Below, piece after piece: positions 10,232 to 27,632 of a stretch of DNA of 32,000 nucleotides. The first letter of the stretch is position 1, and the number at the start of each line of letters is the position of its first letter. The stretch comes from Cupriavidus necator (GTDB lineage Bacteria; Pseudomonadota; Gammaproteobacteria; Burkholderiales; Burkholderiaceae), in contig NZ_CP066018.1 of NCBI RefSeq assembly GCF_016127575.1, forward strand, positions 3,780,001 to 3,812,000, written 5' to 3'. Below the pieces are notes generated by a model. It saw only the letters and a program-made list of their open reading frames with translations. It was not told the DNA's origin and did no database searches. A program made the position numbers and the translations under genes.

Positions 10232-10235
10232 CGCC

Positions 10236-10706: not shown

Positions 10707-10718
10707 CAGGAGTGATTC

Positions 10719-11033: not shown

Positions 11034-11064
11034 GAGGTCGCGTCACCAACCAGAGGAGACAGCC

Positions 11065-12318
11065 ATGGATTCCGAGCGCTCAGACACCGCGACTCCCATT
11101 TCGCCAACCGCCACCATCGTCATCGTCGGTGCCGGCCAGGCTGGCGGCTGGGCCGCCCAGACGCTGCGCAACGAGGGCTTCACCGGTCGGCTCGTGCTGA
11201 TCGGGGACGAGGCCCATCCACCGCATGAGCGGCCGCCGTTATCCAAGGCCGTGCTGGCCGGCGAGGCCGCACCCGCCAGCACGTGGCTGCTCAAGCCTGA
11301 AGCGTTCGCTGCGCTCGGGCTGGAGTGGTGGCTGGACACGCGCGTCACCCGCATAGACCGGGCCGCGAAGCGCCTGGAGATAGCCAACGGAGAGATGCTG
11401 CCTTACGACAAGCTGATCCTGTGCACCGGCGGCAGGGCCCGCGCGCTCACCGTTCCGGGCGTCGACACGGCTGCCGTGCATACATTGCGCACGATTGGCG
11501 ATGCCCTGGCGCTGGCGCCGGCGTTGCGGCCCGGGCGCAGCATCGTGGTGATCGGCGGCGGCTGGATCGGCCTCGAAGTCGCCGCCACGGCACGCCGCAA
11601 AGGTGCCGAGGTCACCGTGCTCGAAGCCCAGAGCCGGCTGTGCGAGCGCACCGTGCCGCCGGAAGTCTCGGAGCACCTGCTCGGGCTGCATGCCTCGCAT
11701 GGCACCCGTGTCATGCTCGGCGCCAATATCGCCGGCATCGCCCCCGGTACCGGCGGCCGGTCCGTCGTGAAGCTGGCCGATGGCAGCACGCTGGCTTGCC
11801 ACGCCATCGTTGCGGGTGTCGGTCTCGTGCCGAACGACGAGCTTGCCTGGGAAGCCGGATTGGAGTGCGACGGCGGCGTGGTCGTCGACGCGGGTTGCCG
11901 CACGTCCGACCCCGACATCTTCGCCGCGGGCGACGTCGCGGTCACGCCCAACCCGTGGGCCGGCCGGCGCCTGCGGCTGGAATCCTGGCAGAACGCCCAG
12001 GAACAGGGCATTGCCGCCGCGCGCGCGGCGCTCGGTCTCGCGGTCGACTATCAGCCGCTGCCTTGGTTCTGGTCAGACCAGTACGGCATGAACCTGCAGA
12101 TCCATGGCATCCCCCTTCCCTCGCACCGCGTGGTGGCGCGCGGCACGCCCGGCGCGGACAGCTTCGTGCTGTTCTACCTCGACGGCGACGTGGTCAAGGC
12201 CACGCTAGGGTCCAACGCCGCGCGCGACCTGCGCTTCGCGCGCCGCCACATCGAGCAGTGCAAGCCGGTCGATGCCAGCCGCCTGGCCGACCCGAACGTG
12301 CCGATGTCCAGGCAGTAA
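11065..12318 (+). CDS. FAD-dependent ferredoxin--NAD(+) reductase component
   Basis: 417 aa with dinucleotide folds IVIVGAGQAGG and IVVIGGGWIGLEVAA, plus FAAGDVA. GAGGAG lies upstream. Confidence 0.9.
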   Translation: MDSERSDTATPISPTATIVIVGAGQAGGWAAQTLRNEGFTGRLVLIGDEAHPPHERPPLSKAVLAGEAAPASTWLLKPEAFAALGLEWWLDTRVTRIDRAAKRLEIANGEMLPYDKLILCTGGRARALTVPGVDTAAVHTLRTIGDALALAPALRPGRSIVVIGGGWIGLEVAATARRKGAEVTVLEAQSRLCERTVPPEVSEHLLGLHASHGTRVMLGANIAGIAPGTGGRSVVKLADGSTLACHAIVAGVGLVPNDELAWEAGLECDGGVVVDAGCRTSDPDIFAAGDVAVTPNPWAGRRLRLESWQNAQEQGIAAARAALGLAVDYQPLPWFWSDQYGMNLQIHGIPLPSHRVVARGTPGADSFVLFYLDGDVVKATLGSNAARDLRFARRHIEQCKPVDASRLADPNVPMSRQ

Positions 12319-12357
12319 GCCCAGCCATAAGAACAGACCGACCGGAGACAAGCCCCC

Positions 12358-13734
12358 ATGCAGCAAATCGACATCCACAAGCTGGCCGACACGGCCCGCT
12401 TCAACCGCTTCCATGCGCTCGTGCTGTTCTGGTGCGCACTCATCATCATCTTCGACGGCTATGACCTCGCGGTCGTGGGCATCGCGCTGCCTTCGATCAT
12501 GAAGGACCTCGGCGTCGCCCCGACCCAGGCGGGGCTCATGGTCAGCTCCGCGCTGTTCGGCATGGTGTTCGGCGCGATCTTCCTCGGCACCATGGCCGAC
12601 AGGATCGGCCGCCGCTGGACGATCGCGATCTGCGTCGCCCTGTTCAGCGTCTTCACCGCTGCGGCCGGGCTGGTCAAGGACCCGCTGCTGTTCAGCATGG
12701 CCCGCTTCCTGGCCGGGCTCGGCATCGGCGGCGTGATGCCGAATGTGGTCGCGCAAATGACCGAGTACGCGCCGAAGAAAATCCGGGCGACCCTGGTCAC
12801 CGTGATGTTCAGCGGCTATGCCGTGGGCGGGGTCCTGGCGGCGCTGCTCGGCAAGAGCCTGATCGAGGCCTACGGCTGGCAGTCGGTCTTCCTGGCGGCC
12901 GGCCTGCCCGTGCTCCTCATTCCTGTCATTCTCGGGTCGCTGCCAGAATCGATGCCGTTCCTGCTGGCCAGGGGCGACCACGAAGCGTTGCGGCGCATCG
13001 TCTCCAGGCTTGCGCCGGAGCAACGGTGGTCGGCCACCGACCGCTTCGCCGTGCCGGCGCAGGACAAGGCCGCCAGCGCGCCAATCCGGCACCTGTTCCA
13101 CGAGGGCCGTGGCTTCAGCACCATCATGTTCTGGATCGCGTTCTTCATGTGCCTGTTCATGGTGTACGCGCTCAGTTCATGGCTGACCAGGCTGATGGCG
13201 GGCGCCGGCTACAGCCTGGGTTCCGCGCTGACCTTCGTGCTGGTCCTCAACCTCGGGGCGATGATCGGCGCCGTGGGCGGCGGCTGGCTCGCCGACCGCT
13301 ACCACATCAAGTACGTGCTCGCCGCCATGTACGCGCTGGCCGCGGTCTCGATCACGCTGCTCGGATTCAGGATGCCGACTGAACTGCTGTTCGTCGTGGT
13401 GGGCCTGGCCGGTGCGTCGACGATCGGCACGCAGATCGTCGCCAATGCCTACACCGGGCAGTTCTACCCGACCGCCATCCGTTCCACCGGTCTTGGCTGG
13501 GCCCTGGGCATCGGCCGCAGCGGGGCCATCCTCGCCCCAATCGTCATCGGGGTACTCGTCGCCATGGAACTCCCGCTGCAGCAGAACTTCATCGCGATCG
13601 CCATTCCGGCGGTGATTGGCATGGGCGCGGTCCTGCTGATCGATCACAGGCGCTCGGCATCGGCCCGCTACGACGAAATGAGCGCCGGGCTGCCTGCGTC
13701 GCCGGTCGGGCTGTCCATCGCGGACCGGAACTGA
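12358..13734 (+). CDS. MFS aromatic acid:H+ symporter (AAHS) family transporter
   Basis: 458 aa, 12 hydrophobic segments, GYDLAVVGIALPSI, and MFS motif A (GTMADRIGRR). It is the last gene of the oxygenase operon. Confidence 0.85.
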   Translation: MQQIDIHKLADTARFNRFHALVLFWCALIIIFDGYDLAVVGIALPSIMKDLGVAPTQAGLMVSSALFGMVFGAIFLGTMADRIGRRWTIAICVALFSVFTAAAGLVKDPLLFSMARFLAGLGIGGVMPNVVAQMTEYAPKKIRATLVTVMFSGYAVGGVLAALLGKSLIEAYGWQSVFLAAGLPVLLIPVILGSLPESMPFLLARGDHEALRRIVSRLAPEQRWSATDRFAVPAQDKAASAPIRHLFHEGRGFSTIMFWIAFFMCLFMVYALSSWLTRLMAGAGYSLGSALTFVLVLNLGAMIGAVGGGWLADRYHIKYVLAAMYALAAVSITLLGFRMPTELLFVVVGLAGASTIGTQIVANAYTGQFYPTAIRSTGLGWALGIGRSGAILAPIVIGVLVAMELPLQQNFIAIAIPAVIGMGAVLLIDHRRSASARYDEMSAGLPASPVGLSIADRN

Positions 13735-14177: not shown

Positions 14178-15023
14178 TCAGGCCGACTGGGAAGGCATCC
14201 GCGGCACGAAGCGGCGGCGCTCGATCTCGCCACCCCGGGCCACCAGGGTGGTCGCCTCGGGAATTTCCTCCCATACCCCCTGCACCTCGATCAGCGGCTC
14301 GGACAGCACCAGGAAGGCGTTGTCGCCGGCGGCGATGATGCGCGGATCGTCCGGGTAAAGCGCGCGCAATTGCCGGAACGAGGTGCTGTGGAACAGCGAG
14401 CGCGAGTCCGTCTCGCTCGAATAGCGCACCGCCACGATCTGCTGGCCGTCGGTCACGCAGACGGTCATGTTGAGCGGAAACTGCACATCGTAACGGTGGC
14501 CAACGTCCTCGATCAGCCCGGCCATCTGTTCCAGCGCGCCGCCCGGATCGCGCTCCAGGCCGAAACTCAGGGCCAGGAAGAACATCACCTCGGAGTCGGT
14601 CGACCCCTCGATCCAGCGGAACAGGTGCGGCGCCACGGCCAACATCAGGTCGCGCCGCAACAGCGGGTATTCGCGGATCAGGCCGTTGTGGACGAACAGC
14701 CAGCGGCCGAAGCGGAACGGATGGCAGTTGGTCTCCTGCGTCGGGGTGCCGGTGGCTGCGCGCACGTGGGCAACGAAAAGTGGCGCTCTCACCGCCCGCG
14801 CGGTCTCGCGCAGGTTGGTGTCGCTCCAGGCCGGGTGCAGGCAGCGGTAGCGGAACGGCACCTCCGAGTGACGTCCATACCACCCGACGCCGAACCCGTC
14901 GCCATTGGTCGTGGTATGACCCAGCCGCGAATTCAGGCTCTGGTCGATCAGCGAGTGTTCCGGCTGGAACAGCACCGTTTCCAGCGGAACGGATTTGCCC
15001 GAGTAAGCCAGCCAGCGGCACAT
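14178..15023 (-). CDS. Class II (Ntn-type) glutamine amidotransferase, YafJ/EgtC-like
   Basis: The internal ATG at 15023 is preceded by AAGGAGGAG. The product starts Met-Cys (MCRWLAYSG), as expected for the Cys nucleophile of class II amidotransferases. It also carries NGDGFGVGWY and HVRAATGTPTQETNCHPF. Confidence 0.85.
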   Translation of the reverse strand: MCRWLAYSGKSVPLETVLFQPEHSLIDQSLNSRLGHTTTNGDGFGVGWYGRHSEVPFRYRCLHPAWSDTNLRETARAVRAPLFVAHVRAATGTPTQETNCHPFRFGRWLFVHNGLIREYPLLRRDLMLAVAPHLFRWIEGSTDSEVMFFLALSFGLERDPGGALEQMAGLIEDVGHRYDVQFPLNMTVCVTDGQQIVAVRYSSETDSRSLFHSTSFRQLRALYPDDPRIIAAGDNAFLVLSEPLIEVQGVWEEIPEATTLVARGGEIERRRFVPRMPSQSA

Positions 15024-15289
15024 GATGCTCCTCCTTGACCGGTGCGGCCCGGTGGCTTCCGGCCCACACTTCCAGTTGTAGGACGACAACGCGCGAACGC
15101 AAAGCACGCGCAGCTGTGGCGCACCGGCTACCCTCAACTGTACGCCGGCTCCACCGGGATACGGCGAGTTGACGCTGCGAAGCAGCAATGGCTGTAGAAT
15201 ACGCGTCCTCCCCGATTCCAATGGTCACGGCGTCCGATATCGGCCCGCGCCGCACCGGTACCTCACGAGCCTTGACAGCAGGCCCGATA

Positions 15290-15308
15290 GCGCACGCACA
15301 GCGTGCGC
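15290..15308. repeat. Perfect 8-bp inverted repeat with 3-nt spacer, 41 nt upstream of the rpoD start
   Basis: GCGCACGC (15290-15297) ACA GCGTGCGC (15301-15308). It lies just downstream of a TTGACA hexamer (15272-15277). Confidence 0.5.
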
Positions 15309-15348
15309 GCTGCTGTCGAAACGCGATTCACGAAGGAAACAGTAGTAA

Positions 15349-17319
15349 ATGACAAGCGGCGTACAACGAACGGCAGCTAAAACACGAGAAACAGGCGCAA
15401 TCAAGGACCCTGGCCAGACCAGCGCAGGGTCGACGGCGCAGCCTGATCCATCGACGGAAGCCGCCGCGCGTAGCCAGCAATTGCGTGCGCTGATCCAGCT
15501 GGGCAGGCAGCGCGGCTACCTGACCCACGCGGATATCAGCGACCACCTGCCGGAGAACTTCACTGACACGGCGGCGATGGAAAGCATCGTCAGCACGTTC
15601 GCCGAGATGGGCGTGAAGATCTATGAGCAGACGCCGGATGCCGAGACGCTGCTCCTGAGCGATGGCCCGGTGGTGGCCTCGGACGACCAGGCCGATGAAG
15701 AGGCCGAGGTAGCGCTTGCGACTGTGGACTCCGAGTTCGGCCGGACCACCGACCCGGTGCGCATGTACATGCGCGAAATGAGCTCGGCAACGCTGCTCAC
15801 GCGCAAGCAGGAAGTCGAGATCGCCAAGCGCATCGAGGAAGGCCTGAACAATATGGTGCATGCCATCTCGGCCTGCCCGTTCACCATCGCCGCGATTCTC
15901 GAGCTGTCGGGCAAGGTCGCCAGCAATGAAATCAGCATCGACGACCTGGTCGATGGCCTGAGCGACGAGAGTATTGCCGAAGCAGCCGTGGCGGCGGCAG
16001 CTGACGAGACCGACGACAGCGTCGATAGTGCCGACGAGGCCGATGACGATTCCGAAGACTCCGACGACGAAGGCTCGACCCAGCAAAGCAACGAAAAAGC
16101 CCTGGCCCAACTGCGTGAGGAATGCCTGAAGCGGTTCGCGCGCGTCACCGCGCAATTCGAGCTGATGTGCCAGGAAAGCGCCGCAAATGGCGCGGGCTCG
16201 GCAGCCTTCCTGGCCGCAAGGGATGCGGTGCGCGAAGAACTGCGCACGATCCGCTTTACCGCGAAGACCATCGAGCGCCTGTGCGCCAACGTCCAGGCCA
16301 TGGTCGACGAGGTGCGCACGGTCGAGCGCCAGGTGGTCCAGCTGCTGGTCGAGCGCTGCGGGATGGAGCGCGAGGAGGTCATCGCCCGCTTCCCCGGCAA
16401 TGAAACCAACCTGGCCTGGGGGCAGGAGCTGGTCGCCCAGTCCCGTCCGTACAGCGCGGCGGTCGCGCGGGCCCTGCCGGACCTCGAGGCGCACCAGCAA
16501 AAGCTGATCGACATCCAGGCCCGGGCGGCGCTGTCGCTGCCCGACCTGAAGGGCGTCAACCGCAAGATGCTGGCTGCCGAGCGGCAGATGCGCCAGGCCA
16601 AGCACGAGATGACGCAGGCCAACCTGCGGCTGGTGATCTCGATTGCCAAGAAGTACACCAACCGCGGGATGCTGTTCCTGGATCTGATCCAGGAAGGCAA
16701 CATCGGCCTGATGAAGGCGGTCGACAAGTTCGAATATCGCCGCGGCTGGAAATTCTCCACCTACGCGACGTGGTGGGTGCGCCAGGCCGTGACGCGGGCG
16801 ATTGCCGACCAGGCCCGCACCATCCGCGTCCCGGTGCACATGATCGAGCAGATCAACAAGCTCAATCGCCTGTCGCGCGAGATCATGCAGCAGACCGGCA
16901 AGGAACCCGATCCGGCGGTGCTGGCCGAGCGCCTGGACATGACCGAAGACAAGGTTCGCTCGATCATGAAAATCGCGAAAGAGCCGGTCTCGATGGAAAC
17001 CCCGGTCGGCGAGGATGGCGATACCAGCCTGGGCGACATGATTGCCGACTCGGACACGGCCACGCCCGCCGACGCCGCATTGCAGGCGGGCCTGCGCGCC
17101 GTCGTGCGCGAAATGCTCGACGAGCTCACGCCGCGTGAAGCCAAGGTGCTGCGGATGCGCTTTGGCATCGATATGTCCACCGACTACACGCTGGAAGAAG
17201 TCGGCAAGCAGTTCGATGTCACGCGCGAGCGGATCCGCCAGATTGAAAGCAAGGCAATGAAGAAGCTGAGGCATCCCAGCCGGGCAGACCAGCTGATCAC
17301 CTATCTGCGCGACGCCTGA
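15349..17319 (+). CDS. rpoD: RNA polymerase sigma-70 family primary-like sigma factor (RpoD paralogue by context)
   Basis: 656 aa. Present: region 1.1, region 1.2 ([11 protein letters not shown]), an acidic non-conserved insert ([24 protein letters not shown]), region 2 ([75 protein letters not shown]) and region 4 ([32 protein letters not shown]). An in-frame TAA directly precedes ATG 15349. Confidence 0.9.
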
Positions 17320-17375
17320 TACTTGCCGGCAACAGCCGCTTGGCCGACTGACACAGAGCAGACAGGAGCTTTCGG

Positions 17376-17960
17376 ATGACTGACTCGAACCTATCTTTCT
17401 TCGGCAGGGTCTCGCTTGCCATGGGCACCTTCTTCGCCATCCTTGGCAACCGCGAACTCGCGGCCGGTGTCAAGCGCCTGCGTGACGGCGAGGGATTCGC
17501 CGCGGCGCCGGCGCCCGCGGCTGTATCAGCACCTGCTCCCGCCCCGGTGGCGGAGGCTGCCGCACCCGTGCTGAAGGAAGCCAGCCCGGTGGCGGCGCTG
17601 CAGTTGCTCGGACTGCTCCAGCGCGATGCACGCTTCATCGACTTCGTCGAGGAAGATATCGCGCGCTATTCCGACACGGAGATCGGTGCCGCCGCGCGCC
17701 TGGTGCACGATGGCTGCCGCGGGGTGCTGCGCGAGCACTTCACCATCCGGCCGGTGCGCGAGGAAGCCGAGGGCAGCCGTGTCACGCTGGCCGACGGCTT
17801 CGATGCCACCGCCATCCGCCTGACCGGCAACGTGGTAGGCAGCGCGCCGTTCCATGGCAGCATCAGCCACCGCGGCTGGAAGGTCGAGGAAGTCCGCCTG
17901 CCGCGCGTGGCCGAACGCCATGACGCCACCGTGATTGCCCCCGCCGAGGTGGAGCTTTGA
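17376..17960 (+). CDS. DUF2760-like protein: N-terminal hydrophobic helix, Ala/Pro linker, conserved C-terminal domain
   Basis: 194 aa with AGGAG 8 nt upstream. It contains LSFFGRVSLAMGTFFAIL, then AAAPAPAAVSAPAPAPVAEAAAP, then LQLLGLLQRDARFIDFVEEDIARYSDTEIGAAARLVHDGCRGVLREHF...RLTGNVVG..PF.G...H.GW, which matches my recollection of PF10816 members. Its stop overlaps the next ATG (ATGA, 17957-17960). Confidence 0.7.
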   Translation: MTDSNLSFFGRVSLAMGTFFAILGNRELAAGVKRLRDGEGFAAAPAPAAVSAPAPAPVAEAAAPVLKEASPVAALQLLGLLQRDARFIDFVEEDIARYSDTEIGAAARLVHDGCRGVLREHFTIRPVREEAEGSRVTLADGFDATAIRLTGNVVGSAPFHGSISHRGWKVEEVRLPRVAERHDATVIAPAEVEL

Positions 17961-19807
17961 TGAGCGAAGCACGCTATGCCATCGGCATCGACCTGGGCAC
18001 CACCCATGGCGCGGTCTCCTACGTCGACCTGGCCGCCAGCGATGGCGAGAAGACCAGCCAGCGCGTCCTGCCCATCACGCAGCTGACCGCGCCGGGGGCC
18101 GTCGAAGACCTGGACCTGCTGCCCTCCTTCCTGTACCTGCCACACGCCAGCGAACTCGCCCCGGGCGACCTGGCGCTGCCGTGGAACGCCGCGCGCGACT
18201 TCGCCGTGGGCGAGCTGGCGCGCAGCCGCGGCGCGGCCACGCCGATCCGCCTGGTGTCGAGCGCGAAGAGCTGGCTGTGCCATCCCGGCATCGACCGCCG
18301 CGCGCCGGTCCTGCCCAACGACGCACCGCCCGAGGTGACGCGCGTGTCGCCGCTGGAGGCTTCCGTGCGCTATCTCACGCACCTGCGTGAAGCCTGGGAC
18401 CAGGCCCACCCCGAAGCGCCGTTTGGCGAGCAGGACGTCACCGTGACGATTCCCGCATCGTTCGACCCGGCCGCACGGGAGCTGACGGCCGAGGCGGCCG
18501 CCGCGGCCGGCTATGCCCGCATGACCCTGCTCGAGGAACCCCAGGCCGCGCTCTATAGCTGGATCCAGAAAAGCGGCGGCCAATGGCGCAAGCAGGTCAA
18601 GGTCGGCGACATCATCCTCGTCGTCGATGTGGGTGGCGGCACCACCGACCTTTCGCTGATCGCCGTGATCGAGCGCGAAGGCAACCTTGAGCTGCACCGT
18701 ATTGCGGTCGGCGACCATATCCTGCTCGGCGGCGACAACATGGATCTGGCGCTGGCCCACGTGGTGGCGCGCAAGCTGGCGGCCCAGGGCACGCAGGCCG
18801 ATCCGTGGCAACTGCGCGCGCTGACCTATGCCTGCCGCGCGGCCAAGGAAACGCTGCTGACCGACCCGGATACCGATACCGTGCCCCTGGTCGTGCCCAG
18901 CCGCGGCTCCAGGCTGATCGGCGGCTCGATCCGCACGGACCTGACCCGCGCCGAGCTGACCCAGACCATCCTGGAAGGCTTCTTCCCGCAAGTCGAGGCC
19001 TCGGCCCGCCCGGTGAGCCGCGCGCGCGCCGGCCTGACGCAGCTTGGCTTGCCCTATGCGCAGGATGCGGCCATCACGCGGCACCTGGCCGCGTTCCTGG
19101 GCCGGCAGGTGGCGGCGCTGGCCGAAATCGAAGGCTTGCAGAGCGCACAGCCGGAAGGCGCGACCTTGCTGCACCCGACCGCCGTCCTGTTCAACGGCGG
19201 CGTGTTCAAGTCCGGCCTGCTGGCGGACCGCATCCTGCAGACGCTGAACGGCTGGCTCGCCGCGGAAGGCGCGGCCCCTGCCCGCCTGCTTGACGGCGCC
19301 GAGCTGGACCTGGCCGTGGCACGCGGCGCCGCCTATTACGGCTACGTGCGGCGCGGCAAGGGGGTGCGGATTCGTGGCGGCACCGCGCGCGCCTACTATA
19401 TCGCCGTGGAATCGTCGATGCCCGCCGTGCCTGGCTTCGAACCGCCGATCCAGGCCCTGTGCGTGGCGCCGTTCGGCATGGAGGAAGGCACCGAGGCCGC
19501 GCTGCCGCCGCAGGAATTCGGCCTGGTGGTGGGCGAACCCGTGCACTTCCGCTTCTTCGGCTCGTCGGTGCGCCGCCAGGACCAGGTCGGCACCCTGCTG
19601 GACTACTGGGGGCCGGAGGAACTGCAGGAGCTGGAAGAAATCCAGGCGACCCTGCCGGCCGAAGGCCGCACCGCGGGCGAAGTGGTACCGGTCAGGCTGC
19701 ATGCGCGGGTGACCGAGGCCGGCACCCTGGAACTCGAAGCCGTGCCCGGCGGCAGCGCTGAGCGCTGGAAGGTCGAGTTCGATGTGCGCGGCAGCGCCGA
19801 TGCCTGA
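17957..19807 (+). CDS. Atypical Hsp70-family ATPase A (616 aa; no canonical helical lid)
   Basis: Actin/Hsp70 NBD motifs are present: YAIGIDLGTTHGAVSYV (phosphate 1), SAKSWL, TIPASFD..LLEEPQAAL, VVDVGGGTTDLSLI (phosphate 2), LFNGGVFKS (adenosine), LAVARGAAYYG. A beta-rich C-terminal part ends TEAGTLELEAV..RWKVEFDVRG. Confidence 0.85.
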   Translation: MMSEARYAIGIDLGTTHGAVSYVDLAASDGEKTSQRVLPITQLTAPGAVEDLDLLPSFLYLPHASELAPGDLALPWNAARDFAVGELARSRGAATPIRLVSSAKSWLCHPGIDRRAPVLPNDAPPEVTRVSPLEASVRYLTHLREAWDQAHPEAPFGEQDVTVTIPASFDPAARELTAEAAAAAGYARMTLLEEPQAALYSWIQKSGGQWRKQVKVGDIILVVDVGGGTTDLSLIAVIEREGNLELHRIAVGDHILLGGDNMDLALAHVVARKLAAQGTQADPWQLRALTYACRAAKETLLTDPDTDTVPLVVPSRGSRLIGGSIRTDLTRAELTQTILEGFFPQVEASARPVSRARAGLTQLGLPYAQDAAITRHLAAFLGRQVAALAEIEGLQSAQPEGATLLHPTAVLFNGGVFKSGLLADRILQTLNGWLAAEGAAPARLLDGAELDLAVARGAAYYGYVRRGKGVRIRGGTARAYYIAVESSMPAVPGFEPPIQALCVAPFGMEEGTEAALPPQEFGLVVGEPVHFRFFGSSVRRQDQVGTLLDYWGPEELQELEEIQATLPAEGRTAGEVVPVRLHARVTEAGTLELEAVPGGSAERWKVEFDVRGSADA

Positions 19808-22607
19808 GCAAGCGGCCGGGCCGGCGACGAAGCAATACGTCGTCGGCATCGACCTCGGCACCAGCAACACCGTCGTCGCCTACGCGAAGGCCGGGTCCGA
19901 CGATATCCGCGTCTTCGATATCGACCAGCTGGTCAGCCCGGGCGAGGTCGCGGCCCGTCCCCTGCTGCCCTCGGTGCGCTACCACGCGGCACCGGGCGAG
20001 CTCAGCGGCGACGACCTGCAGCTGCCCTGGCAATCCGCCGCCAGCGCCGCCGCGCGCCGGACCGTGTTCGGCCGCCTGGCGGCCACGCTCGGCGCGCAAG
20101 TGCCCGGCAGGCTCGTAGCCAGCGCAAAGAGCTGGCTGTCGCATGCTTCGGTCGACCGCACCGCGGCCATCCTGCCTTGGGGCGGGAATGACGATCTCGA
20201 CAAGATCTCGCCCGTCGTCGCCAGCGCCAGCTACCTGGGCTATGTATGCGCGGCGTGGAACCACCGTTTTCCCGATGCGCGGATCGAGGACCAGGACGTG
20301 GTACTCACCGTGCCCGCCTCGTTCGACGAGGGCGCGCGCGCGCTGACGCTTGAGGCGGCGCGCCTGGCCGGTCTGCCCGCGCTGCGCCTGCTCGAGGAGC
20401 CGCAAGCCGCGCTCTACGACTGGCTGTTCCATCATCGCCAGAGCCTGGACACCGACCTGGCGCAAACCCGCCTGGTGCTGATCTGCGACGTGGGCGGCGG
20501 CACCACCGACCTCACCCTGATCCGGGTGGACATGCAGGACGGGCAGCCGCAGCTGACCCGCATCGGCGTGGGCAACCACCTGATGCTCGGCGGCGACAAC
20601 ATGGATCTTGGCCTGGCGCATCTGGTCGAGGCGCGCCTCGGGGCCGGCGGGGCCGCGCAGCCGCGGCTGTCGGCGGCCGGCCTGTCGCAGCTGGTCGCGC
20701 GCTGCCGCGCCGCCAAGGAACAGCTGCTCGGCGCGCAGGCGCCGGACTCGGTCGCGGTGACGCTGCTGGGCGCGGGCGCCAGGCTGATCGGCGGCGCACG
20801 CTCGGTGGAAGTGACGCGGCAGGAGGTCGAACAGCTGATCGTCGACGGCTTCTTCCCCAAGGTGCCGGCCAGTGAAAGGCCGGGGCGCGCACGGGGCGCG
20901 ATTGTCGAGTTCGGCCTGCCGTATGCGTCCGACCCCGCCGTGACCCGGCACGTTGCGGCGTTCCTGAGCCAGCACGCGGCGCAGTCGCGGGCGGCACTGG
21001 ACGCACCACAGGCGCCGGCCGATGCCTTGCCGATGCCCGATACCCTGCTCCTCAACGGCGGCGTATTCAGGGCGCAGGCGCTGGCCGGCCGCATCGCCGA
21101 CACGCTGGGCACGTGGCGCGGCGCGCCGCTGCAGGTCCTGCACAACGACAATCCCGACGTTGCCGTGGCCCGGGGCGCGGTTGCGTATGCCCGGGCCCGT
21201 GCCGGGCAGGCCCCGCGCATCGGCGGCGGCTCGCCGCGCAGCTACTTTCTGGTCCTCGATGATGGCGCGTCGGGGCCGCAAGGGATCTGCCTGCTGCCGC
21301 GCGGCACTGAGGAAGGCCACGAGATTCACCTCAGCGACCGCACTTTCGCCTTGCGGCTCGGCCATCCGGTGCAATTCCACCTGGCATCCTCCGTCGCCGA
21401 CACGGCCTATCAGCCCGGTCAGCTGACCGACCTGTCGGCGGGCGACTTCATCCGCCTGCCGCCGATCGCCACCGTCGTGCCGCCGCGCGGCGCCAGCGGC
21501 CCGCGGGAAACGCCGGTGCAGATCACCGCCTCGCTGACCGAGGTCGGCACGCTCGAGGTCCACTGCATCGACATCGCGGATGCCTCGCAGCGATGGCGCC
21601 TTGAGTTCCAGTTGCGTGGCAATGACACCCAGGCGGCACCAGCGCCCGATACGGCACACCCGTCCCTGCCCCAGGCCCTGGAGGCGATTGACCGCACCTT
21701 TGGCGCGCGCTCGCAGGACGTCGGCCCCAAGGAGGTCAAGCGCCTGCGTGCGCAGCTGGAACAGCTGCTGGGTGCGCGCGAGCAATGGGACAGCGCCGTG
21801 CTGCGCGAGCTGTTCGGCGCCTTCTGGGAACGCGCCCGGCGCAGGCGGCGCACTGCCGACCATGAACGCCTGTGGCTGAACCTGGCCGGCTATTGCGTGC
21901 GCCCGGGATTCGGCTATCCGCTCGACGAATGGCGCGTCGGGCAACTCTGGTCGCAGTACGACCAGGGCATCCAGTACGTCAACGAAAGCCAGAACTGGTC
22001 CGAGTGGTGGACGCTGTGGCGGCGCGCGGCAGGCGGGCTGGACGAAAGCGCGCAACTGCGCCTGCTGGAAGACATGGCCTTCTACCTGCAGCCACCCGGC
22101 AGCACCCGCTACAAGAAGCCCGCCGGGCCCGCCAGGGGCGGCTATGCCGATATGGTGCGCCTTGCCGGCTCGCTCGAGCGCATTCCCGCCGACGCCAAGA
22201 TCGAACTGGCCGAATGGCTGCTGGCCCGGCTGCGCAAGCCATCCGAAAACAGCCAGGGCTGGTGGGCCGTGGGCCGCATCGGCGCGCGCCGGCCGTTCTA
22301 CGGCAGCGCGCACAGCGTGGTGCCGGCCGGGACCGCCGCCCAATGGGTGGACGCGATCCTGGCCCTCGACTGGAAAAAGGTCGAGCCGGCAGCGTTCGCC
22401 GCCGTGCAGATCGCGCGCATGACCGGCGATCGCAGCCGCGACCTGCCCGACGAGATCCGGGCAACCGTGGTGCGCCGGCTGGAAGCCGCCAACGCGCCGC
22501 CAAGCTGGATTGCCATGGTGCGCGAAGTGGTGGAACTCAATACCGCGGACGAGGGGCGGGTGTTTGGGGAGGCGCTGCCCGCCGGGCTCAAGTTGATCGC
22601 GGGGTAG
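19800..22607 (+). CDS. Atypical Hsp70-family ATPase B (935 aa) with ~330-aa C-terminal Trp-rich helical extension
   Basis: Start chosen at ATG 19800 (MPEQ...), overlapping the upstream stop by 8 nt (ATGCCTGA). Motifs: VVGIDLGTSNTVVAY, SAKSWL, TVPASFD..LLEEPQAAL, ICDVGGGTTDLTLI, LLNGGVFRA, VAVARGAVAYA. The beta-rich part ends TEVGTLEVHCI..RWRLEFQLRG, paralogous to ATPase A. It is followed by an unrecognised domain (ERLWLNLAGYCVRPGFGYPLDEWRV..NWSEWWTLWRR..). Confidence 0.85.
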   Translation: MPEQAAGPATKQYVVGIDLGTSNTVVAYAKAGSDDIRVFDIDQLVSPGEVAARPLLPSVRYHAAPGELSGDDLQLPWQSAASAAARRTVFGRLAATLGAQVPGRLVASAKSWLSHASVDRTAAILPWGGNDDLDKISPVVASASYLGYVCAAWNHRFPDARIEDQDVVLTVPASFDEGARALTLEAARLAGLPALRLLEEPQAALYDWLFHHRQSLDTDLAQTRLVLICDVGGGTTDLTLIRVDMQDGQPQLTRIGVGNHLMLGGDNMDLGLAHLVEARLGAGGAAQPRLSAAGLSQLVARCRAAKEQLLGAQAPDSVAVTLLGAGARLIGGARSVEVTRQEVEQLIVDGFFPKVPASERPGRARGAIVEFGLPYASDPAVTRHVAAFLSQHAAQSRAALDAPQAPADALPMPDTLLLNGGVFRAQALAGRIADTLGTWRGAPLQVLHNDNPDVAVARGAVAYARARAGQAPRIGGGSPRSYFLVLDDGASGPQGICLLPRGTEEGHEIHLSDRTFALRLGHPVQFHLASSVADTAYQPGQLTDLSAGDFIRLPPIATVVPPRGASGPRETPVQITASLTEVGTLEVHCIDIADASQRWRLEFQLRGNDTQAAPAPDTAHPSLPQALEAIDRTFGARSQDVGPKEVKRLRAQLEQLLGAREQWDSAVLRELFGAFWERARRRRRTADHERLWLNLAGYCVRPGFGYPLDEWRVGQLWSQYDQGIQYVNESQNWSEWWTLWRRAAGGLDESAQLRLLEDMAFYLQPPGSTRYKKPAGPARGGYADMVRLAGSLERIPADAKIELAEWLLARLRKPSENSQGWWAVGRIGARRPFYGSAHSVVPAGTAAQWVDAILALDWKKVEPAAFAAVQIARMTGDRSRDLPDEIRATVVRRLEAANAPPSWIAMVREVVELNTADEGRVFGEALPAGLKLIAG

Positions 22608-22679
22608 CAGACCAGCGCGAAGCGACTGGCAGGCGCCTCATTTGCCACTTATCTGCGCCAGCCAGGCCGATGATCTACG

Positions 22680-23459
22680 ATGACGGTAGGCTCCTTGCCT
22701 GCCCCACTCGTGAAGCCATCAGCGCCCCGCCCACTCCTCCCAATCCTGGTCGCCGCCATCGCGCTGGCCTTGCCCTGCTCGATCACCGCCGCCGACGACG
22801 CCCTTGCCCCGCAGCGCGCCGACATGGTCAGGGAGATCGCCGCGGTCGCGGCAGCGGCCGCCGCCCAGAGCGGCAGGCATGCCATCGACCCGCGCGTCAT
22901 GGCCGTGATGGGGCAAGTGCCTCGCCACGAGTTTGTGCCGGACGCGCAGAAGCCGCACGCCTATGAGAACCGGCCGCTGCCGATAGGCCATGGCCAGACC
23001 ATTTCGCAGCCGTATATCGTCGCCCTGATGACCGACCTGATGATGGTCAAGCCTGGCGACACCGTGTTGGAAATCGGCACCGGATCCGGCTACCAGGCCG
23101 CGGTGCTGACCGGGCTGGCGCGCGCGGTCTATACCATCGAGATCATCGAGCCGCTGGGACGGCACGCCTGCGACCGCCTGAAGCGGCTGGCCTACCGGCA
23201 GGTGGCGTGCAAGGTGGGCGACGGCTACTACGGCTGGGACGAACACGCGCCCTATGACGCCATTGTCGTCACCGCGGCGGCCAGCCACGTGCCGCCGCCG
23301 CTGATCCGGCAACTGAAGCCAGGCGGGCGCATGGTGATCCCGGTGGGCGCCCAGTTCCTGACGCAGTACCTGCTGCTGGTCGAAAAGTCCGAGGACGGCA
23401 CCGTTTCCACCAGGCAGATCCTGCCGGTCAGGTTCGTGCCGCTGGTTGGCAAGCACTGA
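22680..23459 (+). CDS. pcm: Protein-L-isoaspartate (D-aspartate) O-methyltransferase with N-terminal signal-peptide-like extension
   Basis: PIMT signatures are present: VPRHEFVP, IGHGQTISQPYIVALMTDLM, VLEIGTGSGYQAAVL, YDAIVVTAAA, LKPGGRMVIPVG. About 45 extra N-terminal residues comprise a K/R n-region, the hydrophobic core PLLPILVAAIALALPC, and SITA/AD. Confidence 0.85.
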   Translation: MTVGSLPAPLVKPSAPRPLLPILVAAIALALPCSITAADDALAPQRADMVREIAAVAAAAAAQSGRHAIDPRVMAVMGQVPRHEFVPDAQKPHAYENRPLPIGHGQTISQPYIVALMTDLMMVKPGDTVLEIGTGSGYQAAVLTGLARAVYTIEIIEPLGRHACDRLKRLAYRQVACKVGDGYYGWDEHAPYDAIVVTAAASHVPPPLIRQLKPGGRMVIPVGAQFLTQYLLLVEKSEDGTVSTRQILPVRFVPLVGKH

Positions 23460-23491
23460 AGCGCGGCACATCAGCCCGGCCAGCTGACGCC

Positions 23492-25942
23492 ATGCCACGC
23501 CCCCCGCTGTTCGCCCTGGCCTTGCTCTCTGCCGCCGCGCTGGGCTACGAGATCCTGCTGATGCGGCTGCTTTCCATCATCCAGTGGCATCACTTCGCCT
23601 ACATGATGATCAGCGTGGCACTGCTGGGCTATGGCGCGGCGGGTGCGCTGGTGGCGCTGGCGCAGCGAACGCTGGTCCGCCATTTCGTGCCAGTGTTCGC
23701 GGGCGGGGCCCTGCTGTTCGGCGTCAGCGCGATGGGTTGCTTCGCCCTGGCTCAGCACGTGGCGTTCAACCCCCTGGAGATCCTGTGGGAGCCATCGCAG
23801 CCGCTGCGCCTGTTGCTGATCTACCTGCTGCTGTTCGTGCCGTTCTTTTGCGCCGCGACCAGTATCTGCCTGAGCTTTTCCCGCTTCACCGGGCAGGTTC
23901 CGCGCATCTACAGCTTCGATATCCTTGGCGCCGGGCTGGGCTGCCTGGGCATCATCGTGGCGCTGTTCGCGCTGCATCCGGTCGATGCGCTGCGGCTGGT
24001 CGGCATGGCAGGCATGGCGGCGGCGGCGCTGGCATGCGTGGAATGCCGCTGGCACCGGCCCTGGCTGCCGGCGCTGCTGCTGTTGGCGGCAATCGTTCCG
24101 GCCGGCGTGCCAGGTGACTGGATTGCGCTGCGGCCGTCCGAGTACAAGGAGTTGAGCCAGGCCCTGCGCATCGGCAACGCGCGCGTGGTGGCGCAGCGCT
24201 CGAGTCCCCTCGGCCTGGTCACGGTGGTCGAGAGCCCTTCGATCCCGTTGCGGCACGCACCCGGGCTGAGCCTGAATGCCAGCCAGGAGCCGCCAGCACA
24301 ACTGGCCGTATTTACCGATGGCGACGGGCTCAGTGCGCTCAATCGCCATGACGGCCGGCGCGAACCGCTTGCCTACCTGGGCGACCTGACCTCTGCCCTG
24401 CCCTACCACTTGCTGCGCAATCCGAAGGTGCTGGTGCTGGGCAGCGGTGCGGGGGCGGACGTGTTGCAGGCGGTCTATCACCAGGCCAGCGCGGTCGATG
24501 CCGTGGAACTGAATCCGCAGGTGATCGACCTGGTGCAGGGCCGCTTCGCTGCGTTTTCCGGCAAGCCGTACAGTGCCGCCGGCGTGCGTGTCTTTGCCGG
24601 CGAGGCGCGCGGCTTCCTGGCGGCCAGCACGGCACGCTACGACCTGATCCAGGTGGCCCTGCTGGATTCATTCAGCACCTCATCGGCCGGACTGTACGCG
24701 CTCTCCGAGAGCTATCTCTATACCGTTGAGGCCTTCCAGGGCTACCTGCGCCATCTTCGGCCCGGCGGCCTGCTTGCGATCACGCGCTGGGTCACGCTGC
24801 CGCCGCGCGACATACCCAAACTGCTCGCCACCGCCGTGGCCGCCATGGAAGGCGCGGGCGTGCCCGATCCGTCCCGGCGGCTGGCACTGATCCGTGGCTG
24901 GAAGACGGCCACGCTGGTGGTCAAGAACGGGGAATTCAGTGCAGCGGACCTTGCCGCCCTCGCCGACTTCTGCCGCGCCCGTTCCTTCGACGTCGAATAC
25001 TATCCCGGCATCCAGCCCGGCCAGGCGAATCGCTACAACGTGCTGGACCAGCCCTACTTCTTCGACGCCGCGCAGGCCCTGCTCGGCCCCGAACACGACC
25101 GGTTCCTGTCCCGCTACAAGTTCGATGTGCGGCCCGCCACCGACGACAGGCCGTATTTCTTCCATTTCTTCAAATGGCGCACGCTGCCTGAACTGCTGTC
25201 GCTCAAGGCGCAGGGTGGCCTGCCCTTGCTGGAATGGGGCTATCCGGTGCTGGTGGCGACGCTGCTGCAGGCCACCGCCCTGGCATGGCTGCTGATCGTG
25301 GTCCCGCTCTGGATTCTGCGGCGGCGCCCCCGGCCGCAGCCCGCCGCGGGGCCTGGCGGCAATGGCGCAGCCGTGCGGCGCTTGCCCGAATGGCGAGCCG
25401 GCTTCTACTTCCTCGCGGTCGGCCTCGGCTTCATGTTCGTGGAGATCGCCTTTATCCAGAAATTCATCCTGTTCCTGAGCCACCCGCTCTACGCGGTCGC
25501 GGTGGTGCTGTGCGCCTTTCTCTGCTTTGCGGGACTGGGTAGCCGATACGCCCAGCGCATGCCCGCGCGCGCTGGCGATGACCGCGGCCGGCGGCAGGCG
25601 GCGCTGGCCGTCAACGGCATCTGCGTGGCCGCGCTGGTCTACCTGGCGGCGCTGCCGACGGTGTTCAGGCTGCTGATCGGGTTGCCGGACCCGGCCAGGA
25701 TAGGTGTCTCAGTGCTGCTGATCGCGCCGCTGGCGTTTCTGATGGGAATGCCGTTCCCGCTCGGCCTGGCCCGGATCGCGGCGCGCGACGAAACGCTGGT
25801 GCCCTGGGCATGGGGCATCAACGCCTGCGCCTCGGTGGTGGCGGCGGTCCTTGCCACGCTGGTCGCGATCCATGTCGGATTCACCGCGGTGGTGCTGCTG
25901 GCGCTGCTCCTGTACGCTGCCGCGGCGCTTGCGTGCCCATGA
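23492..25942 (+). CDS. Polytopic membrane protein with central spermidine-synthase-like / class I SAM-methyltransferase-fold domain
   Basis: 816 aa, starting 32 nt after pcm. It has N-terminal and C-terminal multi-helix hydrophobic blocks. The central soluble part carries motif I VLVLGSGAGAD (from nt 24428), AVELNPQVIDL and YDLIQVALLDS. DDRPYFFHFF precedes the second membrane block. Confidence 0.7.
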   Translation: MPRPPLFALALLSAAALGYEILLMRLLSIIQWHHFAYMMISVALLGYGAAGALVALAQRTLVRHFVPVFAGGALLFGVSAMGCFALAQHVAFNPLEILWEPSQPLRLLLIYLLLFVPFFCAATSICLSFSRFTGQVPRIYSFDILGAGLGCLGIIVALFALHPVDALRLVGMAGMAAAALACVECRWHRPWLPALLLLAAIVPAGVPGDWIALRPSEYKELSQALRIGNARVVAQRSSPLGLVTVVESPSIPLRHAPGLSLNASQEPPAQLAVFTDGDGLSALNRHDGRREPLAYLGDLTSALPYHLLRNPKVLVLGSGAGADVLQAVYHQASAVDAVELNPQVIDLVQGRFAAFSGKPYSAAGVRVFAGEARGFLAASTARYDLIQVALLDSFSTSSAGLYALSESYLYTVEAFQGYLRHLRPGGLLAITRWVTLPPRDIPKLLATAVAAMEGAGVPDPSRRLALIRGWKTATLVVKNGEFSAADLAALADFCRARSFDVEYYPGIQPGQANRYNVLDQPYFFDAAQALLGPEHDRFLSRYKFDVRPATDDRPYFFHFFKWRTLPELLSLKAQGGLPLLEWGYPVLVATLLQATALAWLLIVVPLWILRRRPRPQPAAGPGGNGAAVRRLPEWRAGFYFLAVGLGFMFVEIAFIQKFILFLSHPLYAVAVVLCAFLCFAGLGSRYAQRMPARAGDDRGRRQAALAVNGICVAALVYLAALPTVFRLLIGLPDPARIGVSVLLIAPLAFLMGMPFPLGLARIAARDETLVPWAWGINACASVVAAVLATLVAIHVGFTAVVLLALLLYAAAALACP

Positions 25943-26034: not shown

Positions 26035-26640
26035 ATGACCACCCTCTACACAACCCTCGGCGTGGCACCGGACGCCACCCTGGACGAGATCAAGCGCGCC
26101 TACCGCCGCGCCGCGATGAAGTGGCACCCCGACCGCAACCTTGGCCGCGAGACTGAGGCGCATGCGGCATTCCAGGAAATCCGCGACGCCTACACCATTC
26201 TCTCCGATGCCGGGCAGCGCCAGATCTACGACGAGGTATTCGAGCGGGAGATGCGGCGCTGGCAGGCCGAGCGCGAGGCCCAGGAAGAGCAGGAGCGCGA
26301 GGCGCAACGCGAGAGCCAGCGCATCGCGCAGGAACACTACGAGAAAATGCTCGGTATCGCGATGCGCTTTGCCGACGACGGCCACAACCGCGACGTCATC
26401 TTCGGCGTGCTGCTCGGCCGCGACTGCGAGGCGGAACTGGCGTCACGCATCGCGGACAGCATATGGGCGCTGCAGGAGTCGCGGCGGGCAAGTGCGCGGG
26501 ACGCGCACGCGCCGGACACCGAGGCCGCCCAGGCGCCCGACGGGGCGGCAGCGTCAAACCCCGACGAGGAAACGCGGCCCAGGCGTCATGCCGGCGCCTT
26601 CGATTCGTTCTGGCACGGCTTGTTCGGCATCCGCTCCTAG
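26035..26640 (+). CDS. J-domain protein (DnaJ-like co-chaperone, no Zn-finger/CTD) with charged coil and unknown C-terminal domain
   Basis: LYTTLGVAPDATLDEIKRAYRRAAMKWHPDRN...AFQEIRDAYTILSD..QRQIYD is a complete J domain with the HPD motif. It is followed by the ERE/QEE-rich stretch and an unrecognised ~100-aa tail. Confidence 0.85.
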   Translation: MTTLYTTLGVAPDATLDEIKRAYRRAAMKWHPDRNLGRETEAHAAFQEIRDAYTILSDAGQRQIYDEVFEREMRRWQAEREAQEEQEREAQRESQRIAQEHYEKMLGIAMRFADDGHNRDVIFGVLLGRDCEAELASRIADSIWALQESRRASARDAHAPDTEAAQAPDGAAASNPDEETRPRRHAGAFDSFWHGLFGIRS

Positions 26641-26969: not shown

Positions 26970-27422
26970 TCAGTGAATCTGCATCCCGCGCATGGCATGA
27001 ATCCGGCCATGATGCTGCGTCAACGCCTCATACTGGCGCTGCAGCGCCGCGCTGGCCTCTGGCGGCAGCGGCTTCATCATGACGGACTGATACTCGCGCC
27101 TGGCGGCATCTTCCTCGTGCTCGCACATGCCCAGCACGGCGTCGTCGTTGTTCGGCGACAGCATGTGGCGGAATGCCATCCAGCGGCGGTACAGCATGCC
27201 ATTCATGCTGCCCCGGTCAGCTGGCGCGCCGCCCATGGCGCTGACCATCGACTGCAGTTCCTTCACCGACGCCCGGTACGATTCCGCGGTGCTGGTCAGA
27301 ATGTCGCGCAGCGCTGCATCGCGCACTTCGCTGGCTCCGCTCATGCAGGCCAGTTCGCTGTCCTTGCCAGCCTCGATCAGCTGGTTCAGCGCCAAGACAG
27401 CTTGTTGCTGGTTGTTGCCCAT
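26970..27422 (-). CDS. PA2169-type four-helix-bundle (ferritin-like, DUF2383) protein
   Basis: The internal ATG 27422 is preceded by GGGAGA. The 150-aa product follows the family pattern LNQLIEAGKDSE...ELQSMV..MGG.P...GS..G...R.W...DDAVLGMCEHEEDAARREY...LP...L.RQY. Confidence 0.6.
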   Translation of the reverse strand: MGNNQQQAVLALNQLIEAGKDSELACMSGASEVRDAALRDILTSTAESYRASVKELQSMVSAMGGAPADRGSMNGMLYRRWMAFRHMLSPNNDDAVLGMCEHEEDAARREYQSVMMKPLPPEASAALQRQYEALTQHHGRIHAMRGMQIH

Positions 27423-27632
27423 GGAATTCTCCCAATTTGCATGCCAGCGATGCGCAACTTCGGCGCAAGTCGCCAGGTCTCGCCAACGGACGGACCGCCA
27501 CGGCGCAACCGGCCGCGAGGGGAACGTCGGAGACGCCATCAACATGAATCAGCCGGTTCGCGCCGGGCCCCATCTGCCTGCCCGTTCAGAGGCAAGGCGT
27601 GATTCCATGATAGGAGATGGCTGAACCTCGCT

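Follow-up and report, generated by a model that had tools for sequence, protein, structure and literature searches.

The window analysed here is a 32,000-nucleotide (nt) stretch of chromosome 1 of Cupriavidus necator H16. It contains three consecutive genes at 17376 to 22607 that encode a protein of the DUF2760 family and two Hsp70-like proteins, which we call HspA and HspB. The three proteins and the sigma factor encoded upstream of them are identical to CAJ92755-CAJ92758. The original prediction for this DNA described the triad as three same-strand open reading frames fused by start/stop overlaps, and all three indeed lie on the + strand and show a coding-type GC content at third codon positions of 0.81 to 0.88. 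The genes and their junctions are listed below.

17364..17368, + strand: Shine-Dalgarno (SD)-like AGGAG, 7 nt 5′ of the DUF2760 start codon, read directly from the sequence
17376-17960, + strand: DUF2760 gene, 194 amino acids (aa), CAJ92757, identical to the NCBI C. necator protein
17946..17962, + strand: junction 1, with SD-like GAGGTGGAG, TTG at 17957, the stop codon TGA at 17958-17960, and ATG at 17960
17957/17960-19807, + strand: HspA gene, 616/615 aa, CAJ92756
19800..19807, + strand: junction 2, ATGCCTGA, where the HspB start overlaps the HspA stop
19782/19800-22607, + strand: HspB gene, 941/935 aa, CAJ92755; the NCBI annotation is the 941-aa form

At the first junction an overlap of the type ATGA had been reported for 17957-17960, but the letters at this site read TTGA. 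The sequence there is CTT TGA TGA, and HspA starts either with the ATG at 17960, giving a 1-nt overlap, or with the TTG at 17957, giving a 4-nt overlap. The family-typical junction between the DUF2760 and HspA genes in other genomes is ATGA or GTGA, with CTATGAGCGA occurring 68 times and CTGTGAGCGA 34 times. The second junction reads exactly as described, and an in-frame ATG at 19782 provides an alternative start for HspB. Across related loci, 69% of the 162 measurable DUF2760/HspA junctions overlap and 90% fall within 30 nt, the corresponding values for the 125 measurable HspA/HspB junctions being 78% and 92%; these distances are approximate, as they were projected from alignments. Because most junctions across the measurable loci overlap or fall within 30 nt, the tight spacing of the genes in the triad is not due to chance. 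A scan of positions 15200-23600 for sigma-70 promoters and terminators gave no promoter-like site and no terminator on the + strand and was uninformative.

Domain content of the three proteins

The domains of the three proteins were assigned from profile matches, alignments and AlphaFold2 (AF2) models, the confidence of the latter being given as the predicted local distance difference test score (pLDDT). HspA and HspB consist of a nucleotide-binding domain (NBD) followed by a segment resembling the beta-subdomain of the DnaK substrate-binding domain (SBD-beta).

17391..17483, + strand: N-terminal hydrophobic/amphipathic helices of the DUF2760 protein, residues ~6-36 (AF2 helices 8-24 and 26-36), a putative membrane-association segment
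17484..17582, + strand: Ala/Pro-rich flexible linker of the DUF2760 protein, residues ~37-69 (pLDDT <50 for residues 39-58)
17583..17942, + strand: DUF2760 alpha/beta domain, residues ~70-189 (AF2 pLDDT 80-88; four helices, then five strands)
17943..17957, + strand: C-terminal pentapeptide AEVEL of the DUF2760 protein (AEVEL in 82/90 and AEIEL in 8/90 homologues)
~17960-19363 and ~19364-19804, + strand: NBD and SBD-beta-like domain of HspA, a predicted lid-less Hsp70-like ATPase
~19800-21215 and ~21216-21629, + strand: NBD and SBD-beta-like domain of HspB, a predicted Hsp70-like ATPase that also carries DUF3731
21855..22595, + strand: DUF3731 of HspB, residues 692-938 of the 941-aa form (PF12531, 367.8 bits versus a cut-off of 25, E=4.6e-110)

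Both large proteins exceed the cut-off of 20.6 bits of the HSP70 profile PF00012 (HspA, 59.2 bits, E=3e-16; HspB, 65.6 bits, E=3.5e-18), the match being partial and covering the central NBD (positions ~111-304 of 599). They are 22-25% identical to DnaK, and their best scores against the NCBIfam DnaK/HscA equivalogs are 77.2 and 93.7 bits versus cut-offs of 620-822. A sequence search against the PDB gave no close relative, the best matches being Hsp70 NBDs with E values of ~1e-11 to 1e-13.

HspA and HspB of Cupriavidus, Bradyrhizobium and Methyloglobulus were aligned with DnaK, HscA, HscC and YegD of Escherichia coli MG1655. The positions D8, G10, T11, E171, D194, G196-198, T199 and D201 (DnaK numbering) are invariant in this alignment with HspA and HspB of the three lineages, K70 is kept in all Hsp70-like proteins aligned, and the catalytic residues are also invariant in 42 HspB orthologues. 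All nucleotide-binding motifs quoted in the original prediction were found in HspA as well as in HspB, with the phosphate-1, phosphate-2 and adenosine motifs intact, and the equivalents of the DnaK catalytic residues that it had expected (D8, K70, E171, D194, T199 and D201) are present in both proteins of these distant lineages. Since the active-site residues of DnaK are invariant, HspA and HspB look catalytically competent.

In DnaK, residues 389-VLLLD-393 form the interdomain linker, and R167, N170 and T173 contact the J-domain. The linker is replaced in the two proteins by R-I-x-G-G (GV-RIRGG in HspA and AP-RIGGG in HspB), and the positions of R167/N170/T173 are occupied by T/E/Q in HspA and by R/E/Q in HspB. 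Two insertions relative to DnaK are family specific, e.g., DGFFP...RP...GLPY...ITRH. The beta-rich segment of both proteins aligns with the DnaK SBD-beta and ends in a common TE(A/V)GTLE...RW.(V/L)EF signature. A DnaK-type lid and tail are missing, as had been noted before: HspA ends ~12 residues past the last beta-strand, just after RWKVEFDVRG, and HspB has DUF3731 in the place of the lid. Judged by their sequences, HspA and HspB are thus without the allosteric linker, the J-contact residues and the lid of DnaK, and have a complete predicted site for ATP hydrolysis and an SBD-beta-like domain. The AF2 model of HspB displays the secondary-structure pattern of an NBD, a beta-rich region at 482-601 and ~13 helices at 623-916 (935-aa numbering). 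With this low-confidence model (mean pLDDT 54, shallow alignment), Foldseek matched the N-terminal ~600 aa to two-domain DnaK/BiP structures with E values down to 3e-16 in alignments spanning 620-870 columns.

The description of HspA and HspB as paralogues of each other, set apart from DnaK, HscA, HscC and YegD, agrees with their identity of 41% over 618 residues and with a neighbour-joining tree (594 columns, 100 bootstraps) in which they form a clade with 100% bootstrap support. DnaK, HscA and HscC form a separate 100% clade of their own. The HspA orthologues of alpha-, beta- and gammaproteobacteria also form a 100% clade, and the duplication is therefore older than the spread of the module. 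HspA and HspB are the products of an ancient duplication and constitute a clade of their own. HspA is the best conserved of the three proteins, HspB and DUF2760 changing faster; its identity is 83-96% within the Burkholderiaceae, 61-76% to gammaproteobacterial loci and 44-45% to Bradyrhizobium. The SBD-beta-like domain of HspA is conserved to a similar extent as its NBD (47-74% versus 45-76%), whereas in HspB the SBD-beta-like domain is the most variable or nearly the most variable one.

A Trp-rich helical extension had been described for HspB and is present, but it went unrecognised as a catalogued family, PF12531 (DUF3731, "DNA-K related protein"). The DUF3731 region is basic (pI 9.2), Arg-rich, all-helical and contains 4.6% Trp, whereas the remainder of the system is acidic. 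Its invariant motifs in a diverse alignment are R62-P63-G64, W101-R102-R103 and a C-terminal G-E-x-L-P-x-G-L. The family comprises 1,680 clusters at 50% identity in a library of 1.84 billion proteins; in nearly all of the best 150 clusters the domain is located at or near the C terminus, and full-length members of ~900-1,000 aa have the architecture of HspB. Profile searches of DUF3731 against the PDB and relaxed Pfam revealed no relatives and gave no support for an assignment to HEAT, TPR or another recognisable family. The extreme C terminus of HspB (22563-22604), G-E-(A/S)-L-P-x-G-L-(K/R)-L, does not vary even among distant DUF3731 proteins and is Leu-rich like an Hsp70 client peptide; it might serve as a built-in pseudo-substrate.

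The first reading frame had been assigned to DUF2760, and the profile search gave this family with 182 bits versus a cut-off of 25 (PF10816, E=4.6e-54; residues 73-193, profile positions 4-124 of 124). In 90 diverse homologues the layout is constant and consists of a hydrophobic helix, a low-complexity linker, a domain of ~120 residues and the ending AE(V/I)EL, with the linker differing in length and composition (Ala/Pro-rich or (VEKIVE)n repeats). Invariant positions of the domain include R86, D89, F90, GAAAR at 104-108, H111, H165, G167 and W168. The C-terminal pentapeptide is kept in Bradyrhizobium and in variants without HspB. Because it is retained in Bradyrhizobium despite a distance of 116 nt between the genes, it is not conserved merely through the overlap with the ribosome-binding site of the next gene.

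A classical transmembrane (TM) helix (Kyte-Doolittle value ≥2.8) is present at the N terminus of 11 of the 90 homologues, and 16 pass a looser filter (≥1.6 and at most one charge). In homologues read as examples, basic residues follow the TM helix, and by the positive-inside rule the DUF2760 domain would be cytoplasmic. Most homologues, including that of C. necator, have a conserved, moderately hydrophobic helix, SFxxR(I/V)xLAxxxFFxIL. The membrane tethering suggested in the original prediction is therefore plausible in view of the true TM helices of some homologues, but less certain for the C. necator protein itself with its only moderately hydrophobic helix. With the AF2 model of DUF2760, the best Foldseek match in the PDB had E=2.3, none reaching E≤0.001, and neither profile searches against the PDB and relaxed Pfam scans nor a PDB sequence search gave a match. 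A GrpE-, J-domain- or Tim44/NTF2-like fold was unsupported, the NTF2-like Foldseek match being non-significant and the profile searches empty.

Conservation of the triad and the two-gene variant

In a genome scan with one genome per species, which yielded 80 loci from Cupriavidus, Paraburkholderia, Burkholderia, Caballeronia, Azoarcus and Luteibacter, the order DUF2760-HspA-HspB was conserved in 78 loci, the other two being cut by contig ends. A metagenome scan together with plasmid matches showed the full triad in 29 of the 31 loci with enough downstream sequence. The triad, whose conservation as a unit had been an expectation of the original prediction, spans alpha-, beta- and gammaproteobacteria, including Methyloglobulus, other gammaproteobacterial metagenome-assembled genomes and two Bradyrhizobium plasmids. 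Thousands of DUF2760 clusters were found, and identical DUF2760 proteins occur on 140-220 contigs of B. multivorans. Judged by the rates of change of the three proteins and by these identical copies, the pattern looks like that of a cellular machine under purifying selection and less like that of an arms-race gene.

The flanks of the triad vary. The 465 neighbour proteins (two genes on each side) fall into 223 clusters, and no fourth conserved gene accompanies the triad among them. The 129 neighbour representatives match 179 Pfam families, led by the generic GGDEF, MFS, LysR and response-regulator families, and most neighbours have metabolic or regulatory functions; rpoD and pcm are found next to the triad in Cupriavidus only. 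As stated in the original prediction, there is no grpE-like gene, none being present among the 23 window open reading frames scanned. No DnaJ or GrpE family is found among the commonest families of the 129 neighbour representatives, and no linkage to dnaK, dnaJ or grpE was seen. The nearby J-protein had been considered as a candidate partner; in the flanks of 167 related loci, however, a lone weak J-domain match was observed (locus L129, opposite strand). As this was the only match in the surroundings of the other triads, the J-domain protein of the window was rejected as a component of the system.

No copy of the module was present in 50,697 INPHARED phage genomes or in IMG/VR contigs, and a phage or prophage origin was dismissed on these grounds. 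Enrichment in defence islands was likewise rejected, with few single PADLOC matches among the 129 neighbour representatives. On the conjugative plasmid pCC829_3 of Bradyrhizobium barranii (L082, 11312-17161), a MarR-family gene followed by the triad lies between trb genes and a topoisomerase/VapC region, and this position amid plasmid transfer genes shows that plasmids carry the module as cargo. In Bradyrhizobium sp. CB82 the triad is located just upstream of groES-groEL. Copies on plasmids and beside islands show that the module can be transferred. Taken as a whole, the triad is a conserved, autonomous unit of tightly coupled genes that move together.

DUF2760 and HspA occur without HspB at three loci (L081, 11716-14234; L149, 9968-12390; L170, 10001-12393). 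The two-gene copy on a Thiodictyon plasmid sits in a defence island (DUF499/DUF3780/DUF1156, PLD, TIR, VapC), that of L149 lies just upstream of nuo genes, and that of L170 is located between copies of the insertion sequence IS1. The HspA proteins of these variants form a single subclade with 100% support, and their DUF2760 proteins retain the AEVEL tail. A constant association of DUF2760 with exactly two Hsp70 paralogues, which had been raised as a possibility, is contradicted by this monophyletic sub-lineage with HspA only. No replacement partner for HspB was recognised in the two-gene variants, the neighbours being nuo genes, a PALP enzyme and opposite-strand hypotheticals. HspB is the usual but dispensable partner, and since the two-gene variants keep both DUF2760 and HspA as well as AEVEL, these two proteins form the minimal core. 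As AEVEL is kept in the absence of HspB, DUF3731 is unlikely to be the ligand of the tail.

Upstream elements and other genes of the window

The gene located 56 nt upstream of DUF2760 (15349-17319, + strand) encodes a complete RpoD-annotated group-1-type sigma-70 factor with regions 1.1, 1.2, non-essential, 2, 3 and 4, and no terminator was predicted between it and the DUF2760 gene. It is not located beside dnaG, its upstream neighbour being a divergent gene for a class-II glutamine amidotransferase (14178-15221, - strand), and for this reason it may be a second rpoD paralogue. The adjacency of the sigma-70 gene and the triad is confined to Cupriavidus loci.

In Burkholderiaceae loci (L001-L080; e.g., L014 at ~9800-10000), an AT-rich box, GGGCAAAATACGGGTTTT, is found ~170-200 nt upstream of DUF2760, and a second upstream element is a hairpin, AGGACAGCTCGTCCT, after which ACAGAGC immediately precedes the ribosome-binding site. 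The hairpin loop AGCTC is complementary to the SD sequence AGGAGCT, and on this complementarity a pairing of loop and SD sequence could allow translational control. Rfam gave no match for the conserved 5′ region. Of these upstream elements the C. necator window keeps only ACAGAGC...AGGAGC (~17354-17369), a stretch that is conserved upstream of orthologues.

Downstream of the triad, a gene for a protein-L-isoaspartate O-methyltransferase (22680-23459, + strand), with a signal-peptide-like hydrophobic N-terminal extension of ~48 aa provided that translation starts at the ATG at 22680, is followed by a gene for a protein of 816 aa with several TM segments and a spermidine-synthase-like domain (23492-25942, + strand). 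Some Cupriavidus loci also contain this pair, on one or the other side of the triad. The J-domain protein mentioned above (26035-26640, + strand) has 201 aa and combines a J-domain at its N terminus (residues 4-66) with an acidic coiled tail, and its gene adjoins one of the DUF2383 family, a ferritin-like stress family (26970-27545, - strand); in other genomes neither gene accompanies the triad. The region 7964-13734, in which a LysR regulator gene is divergent from genes for a Rieske-type ring-hydroxylating dioxygenase (alpha, beta, ferredoxin and reductase) and an MFS transporter, is an ordinary aromatic-catabolism cluster that is unrelated to the triad.

Proposed mechanism, alternatives and known systems

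We propose that the three genes form a self-contained operon whose products make up a specialised ATPase machine of the Hsp70 type. This machine is probably active on the cytoplasmic side of the inner membrane and would run without a J-domain protein or GrpE. The DUF2760 protein would be a dedicated tether or adaptor, with its N-terminal hydrophobic or TM helix at the membrane, a flexible linker providing reach, and its cytoplasmic alpha/beta domain or its AE(V/I)EL tail engaging HspA. HspA is assumed to be the engaged partner because it is the most conserved component and the sole Hsp70 in the two-gene variant. The engagement may be that of a pseudo-substrate with the SBD-beta of HspA, which is conserved like its NBD. 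HspB would be a paralogous partner or regulator of HspA, much as Hsp110 is for Hsp70 or as Ssz1 is within the ribosome-associated complex (RAC), and could supply nucleotide exchange or client recruitment via its basic Trp/Arg-rich DUF3731. The machine might plausibly remodel membrane-proximal proteins or control their quality. For the general model, in which DUF2760 serves as tether or activator of HspA at the inner membrane and HspB regulates its paralogue in the manner of Hsp110 or Ssz1, we estimate a probability of roughly 0.45, the details being less sure. Its fully specified form, an autonomous J- and GrpE-free two-Hsp70 machine in which anchored DUF2760 clamps HspA via AE(V/I)EL or its domain and HspB is a built-in regulator acting through DUF3731 on membrane-proximal clients, is correspondingly more doubtful and is offered as a tentative proposal.

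Several observations weigh against this proposal. HspB is dispensable in one sub-lineage and so is not an obligatory exchange factor. The best 19-aa window of the C. necator DUF2760 protein reaches a Kyte-Doolittle value of only 1.52 and contains one charge (Arg). The SBD-beta and helical assignments of HspB rest on alignment, secondary structure and Foldseek with a weak model (pLDDT 54). Some copies are located on plasmids, beside integrases or IS elements and, in one case, in a defence island, which suits a mobile accessory function too, and the genomic context of the triad gives no hint of a client.

The mobile copies lead to an alternative that we consider rather unlikely, namely an anti-phage or conflict system in which the Hsp70-like ATPases sense an invader protein or RNA and DUF2760 is a membrane-damaging effector. 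The copy between transfer genes and a VapC toxin on the conjugative Bradyrhizobium plasmid, the two-gene copy in the Thiodictyon defence island, other copies beside an integrase and a methylase or flanked by IS1, and the high variability of the flanking genes would all be in line with it, and the CnuD proteins of CoCoNuT systems also combine an Hsp70-like NBD and SBD with helical repeats (PMC11090510). Weak matches of both Hsp70s to the PADLOC model PDC-M61B point in the same direction, but in PADLOC-DB v2 they cover only ~90 residues of the generic phosphate-2 region (E=1.2e-6 and 3e-4), and DUF2760 has none. No effector domain is recognisable, and the near-housekeeping conservation of HspA (61-76% from beta- to gamma- and 44-45% to alphaproteobacteria) is unlike that of fast-evolving defence genes. 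The module is, moreover, present in all 78 long-enough loci of Burkholderiaceae and relatives, with identical proteins across many B. multivorans contigs, and absent from phage genomes and IMG/VR contigs. Among its neighbours, only a handful of the 129 representatives match PADLOC models, each family once, and no McrB/McrC partners were found.

It is also improbable that HspA and HspB are auxiliary co-chaperones of DnaK, serving as Hsp110-like exchange factors or boosters of disaggregation via NBD-NBD contacts. Such a function was proposed for NBD-containing DnaK paralogues (PMC13580251), and it would agree with the intact NBD of both proteins, with the position of the C. necator operon among stress/repair-type genes (sigma-70 paralogue, PCMT, J-domain protein and DUF2383) and with the adjoining groES/groEL genes in Bradyrhizobium sp. 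CB82. The stress-gene neighbours, however, are not conserved outside Cupriavidus, and no locus shows linkage to dnaK, dnaJ or grpE. A pure exchange factor needs no well-conserved SBD-beta-like domain, such as HspA retains, and the strict co-inheritance of the two paralogues with a dedicated DUF2760 protein suggests an internal partnership. A non-chaperone use of the ASKHA (acetate and sugar kinase/Hsp70/actin) fold, e.g., in a membrane-attached nucleotide-dependent scaffold or filament whose beta-domain binds no clients, is very improbable, since the weak MreB_Mbl, MamK and BeeR profile matches over the phosphate-2 region that speak for it, together with the missing DnaK allosteric linker and lid, are outweighed by MreB-type scores below the curated cut-offs (25 versus 27 bits and lower) that reflect the shared core only, by best sequence and fold matches to two-domain Hsp70s including SBD-beta, and by branching with DnaK, HscA and HscC and not with the NBD-only YegD.

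We favour the proposed membrane-associated machine of DUF2760, HspA and HspB. In agreement with the earlier statement that the DUF2760 family has no assigned function, full-text searches gave no paper on DUF2760, DUF3731, their accessions or guessed H16 locus tags, and a search of the literature on Hsp70 plus defence found no paper on the triad. According to recent reviews, bacterial "DnaK derivatives" are functionally unexplored (PMC13580251, PMC8265645), and one of them suggests, by analogy with Hsp110, that they assist DnaK (PMC13580251). The triad is catalogued in databases and functionally unexplored; it represents a gap in the knowledge of bacterial chaperone-like machines and not a new kind of biology. 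It offers a clean, widespread and tractable case, with two Hsp70 paralogues that are catalytically intact by sequence, a dedicated small partner, a natural two-gene minimal version, and genetically tractable hosts in C. necator H16 and Burkholderia. Solving it would give a function to two Pfam families of the DUF type and would tell whether Hsp70-Hsp70 partnerships of the Hsp110/RAC type have bacterial equivalents.

The action of Hsp70 proteins is usually explained by the DnaK-DnaJ-GrpE triad. HspA and HspB share with canonical DnaK, HscA and HscC the superfamily, the order of NBD and, in their case putative, SBD-beta and the ATP-site residues, whereas the VLLLD linker, the J-contact residues and the alpha-helical lid belong to the canonical proteins, and no cognate J-protein or GrpE is encoded alongside HspA and HspB. 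As a putative anchor, DUF2760 would follow the same logic as the membrane tethers of Hsp70s, such as DjlA in bacteria and Tim44 and Sec63 in organelles, namely that of a small membrane-anchored protein that has a domain on the cytoplasmic or matrix side and is encoded with, or works with, an Hsp70. Unlike these, it has no J-domain and no detectable relationship to Tim44/NTF2-like proteins.

In the type III CoCoNuT systems, CnuD and CnuCD combine an Hsp70-like NBD and SBD with HEAT-like alpha-helical repeats (PMC11090510). Compared by the description of CnuD, the likeness lies in the domain logic of an Hsp70-like NBD and SBD followed by an alpha-helical repeat-like domain. CnuD, however, has McrB-like (NxD) GTPase and McrC-like (DUF2357) partners and a degenerate Walker-A-like motif, whereas the phosphate motifs of HspA and HspB are intact; no McrB-like or DUF2357 McrC genes were found in the window or among the commonest neighbour families. 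StkA of Myxococcus xanthus is a lid-truncated DnaK homologue that regulates exopolysaccharide, is encoded in a small operon with non-chaperone partners and is not heat-inducible (PMC4319316). The Myxococcus stk locus was rejected as an instance of the same system, since StkB is SCP2-like, StkC is PhaE-like, and neither DUF2760 nor a second Hsp70 is present (PMC4319316).

In the Hsp70-Hsp110 pair as well as in yeast RAC (Ssz1-Zuo1 with Ssb), a divergent paralogue of Hsp70 whose C-terminal region is modified works with another Hsp70. In RAC, a partner protein holds the lid-less Ssz1 by placing a pseudo-substrate in the SBD of Ssz1, an arrangement that may, by analogy, resemble that of HspA and DUF2760; the RAC structure PDB 6sr6 is among the fold matches. 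The analogy of Hsp110 and RAC to the triad is one of architecture alone: Hsp110 and Ssz1 belong to eukaryotic lineages, HspA and HspB both keep all catalytic residues, and DUF2760 and DUF3731 are unrelated to Zuo1 and to the extensions of Hsp110. If the proposed mechanism is true, the triad would be a prokaryotic counterpart, and possibly an evolutionary precedent, of the eukaryotic Hsp70-Hsp70 partnerships.

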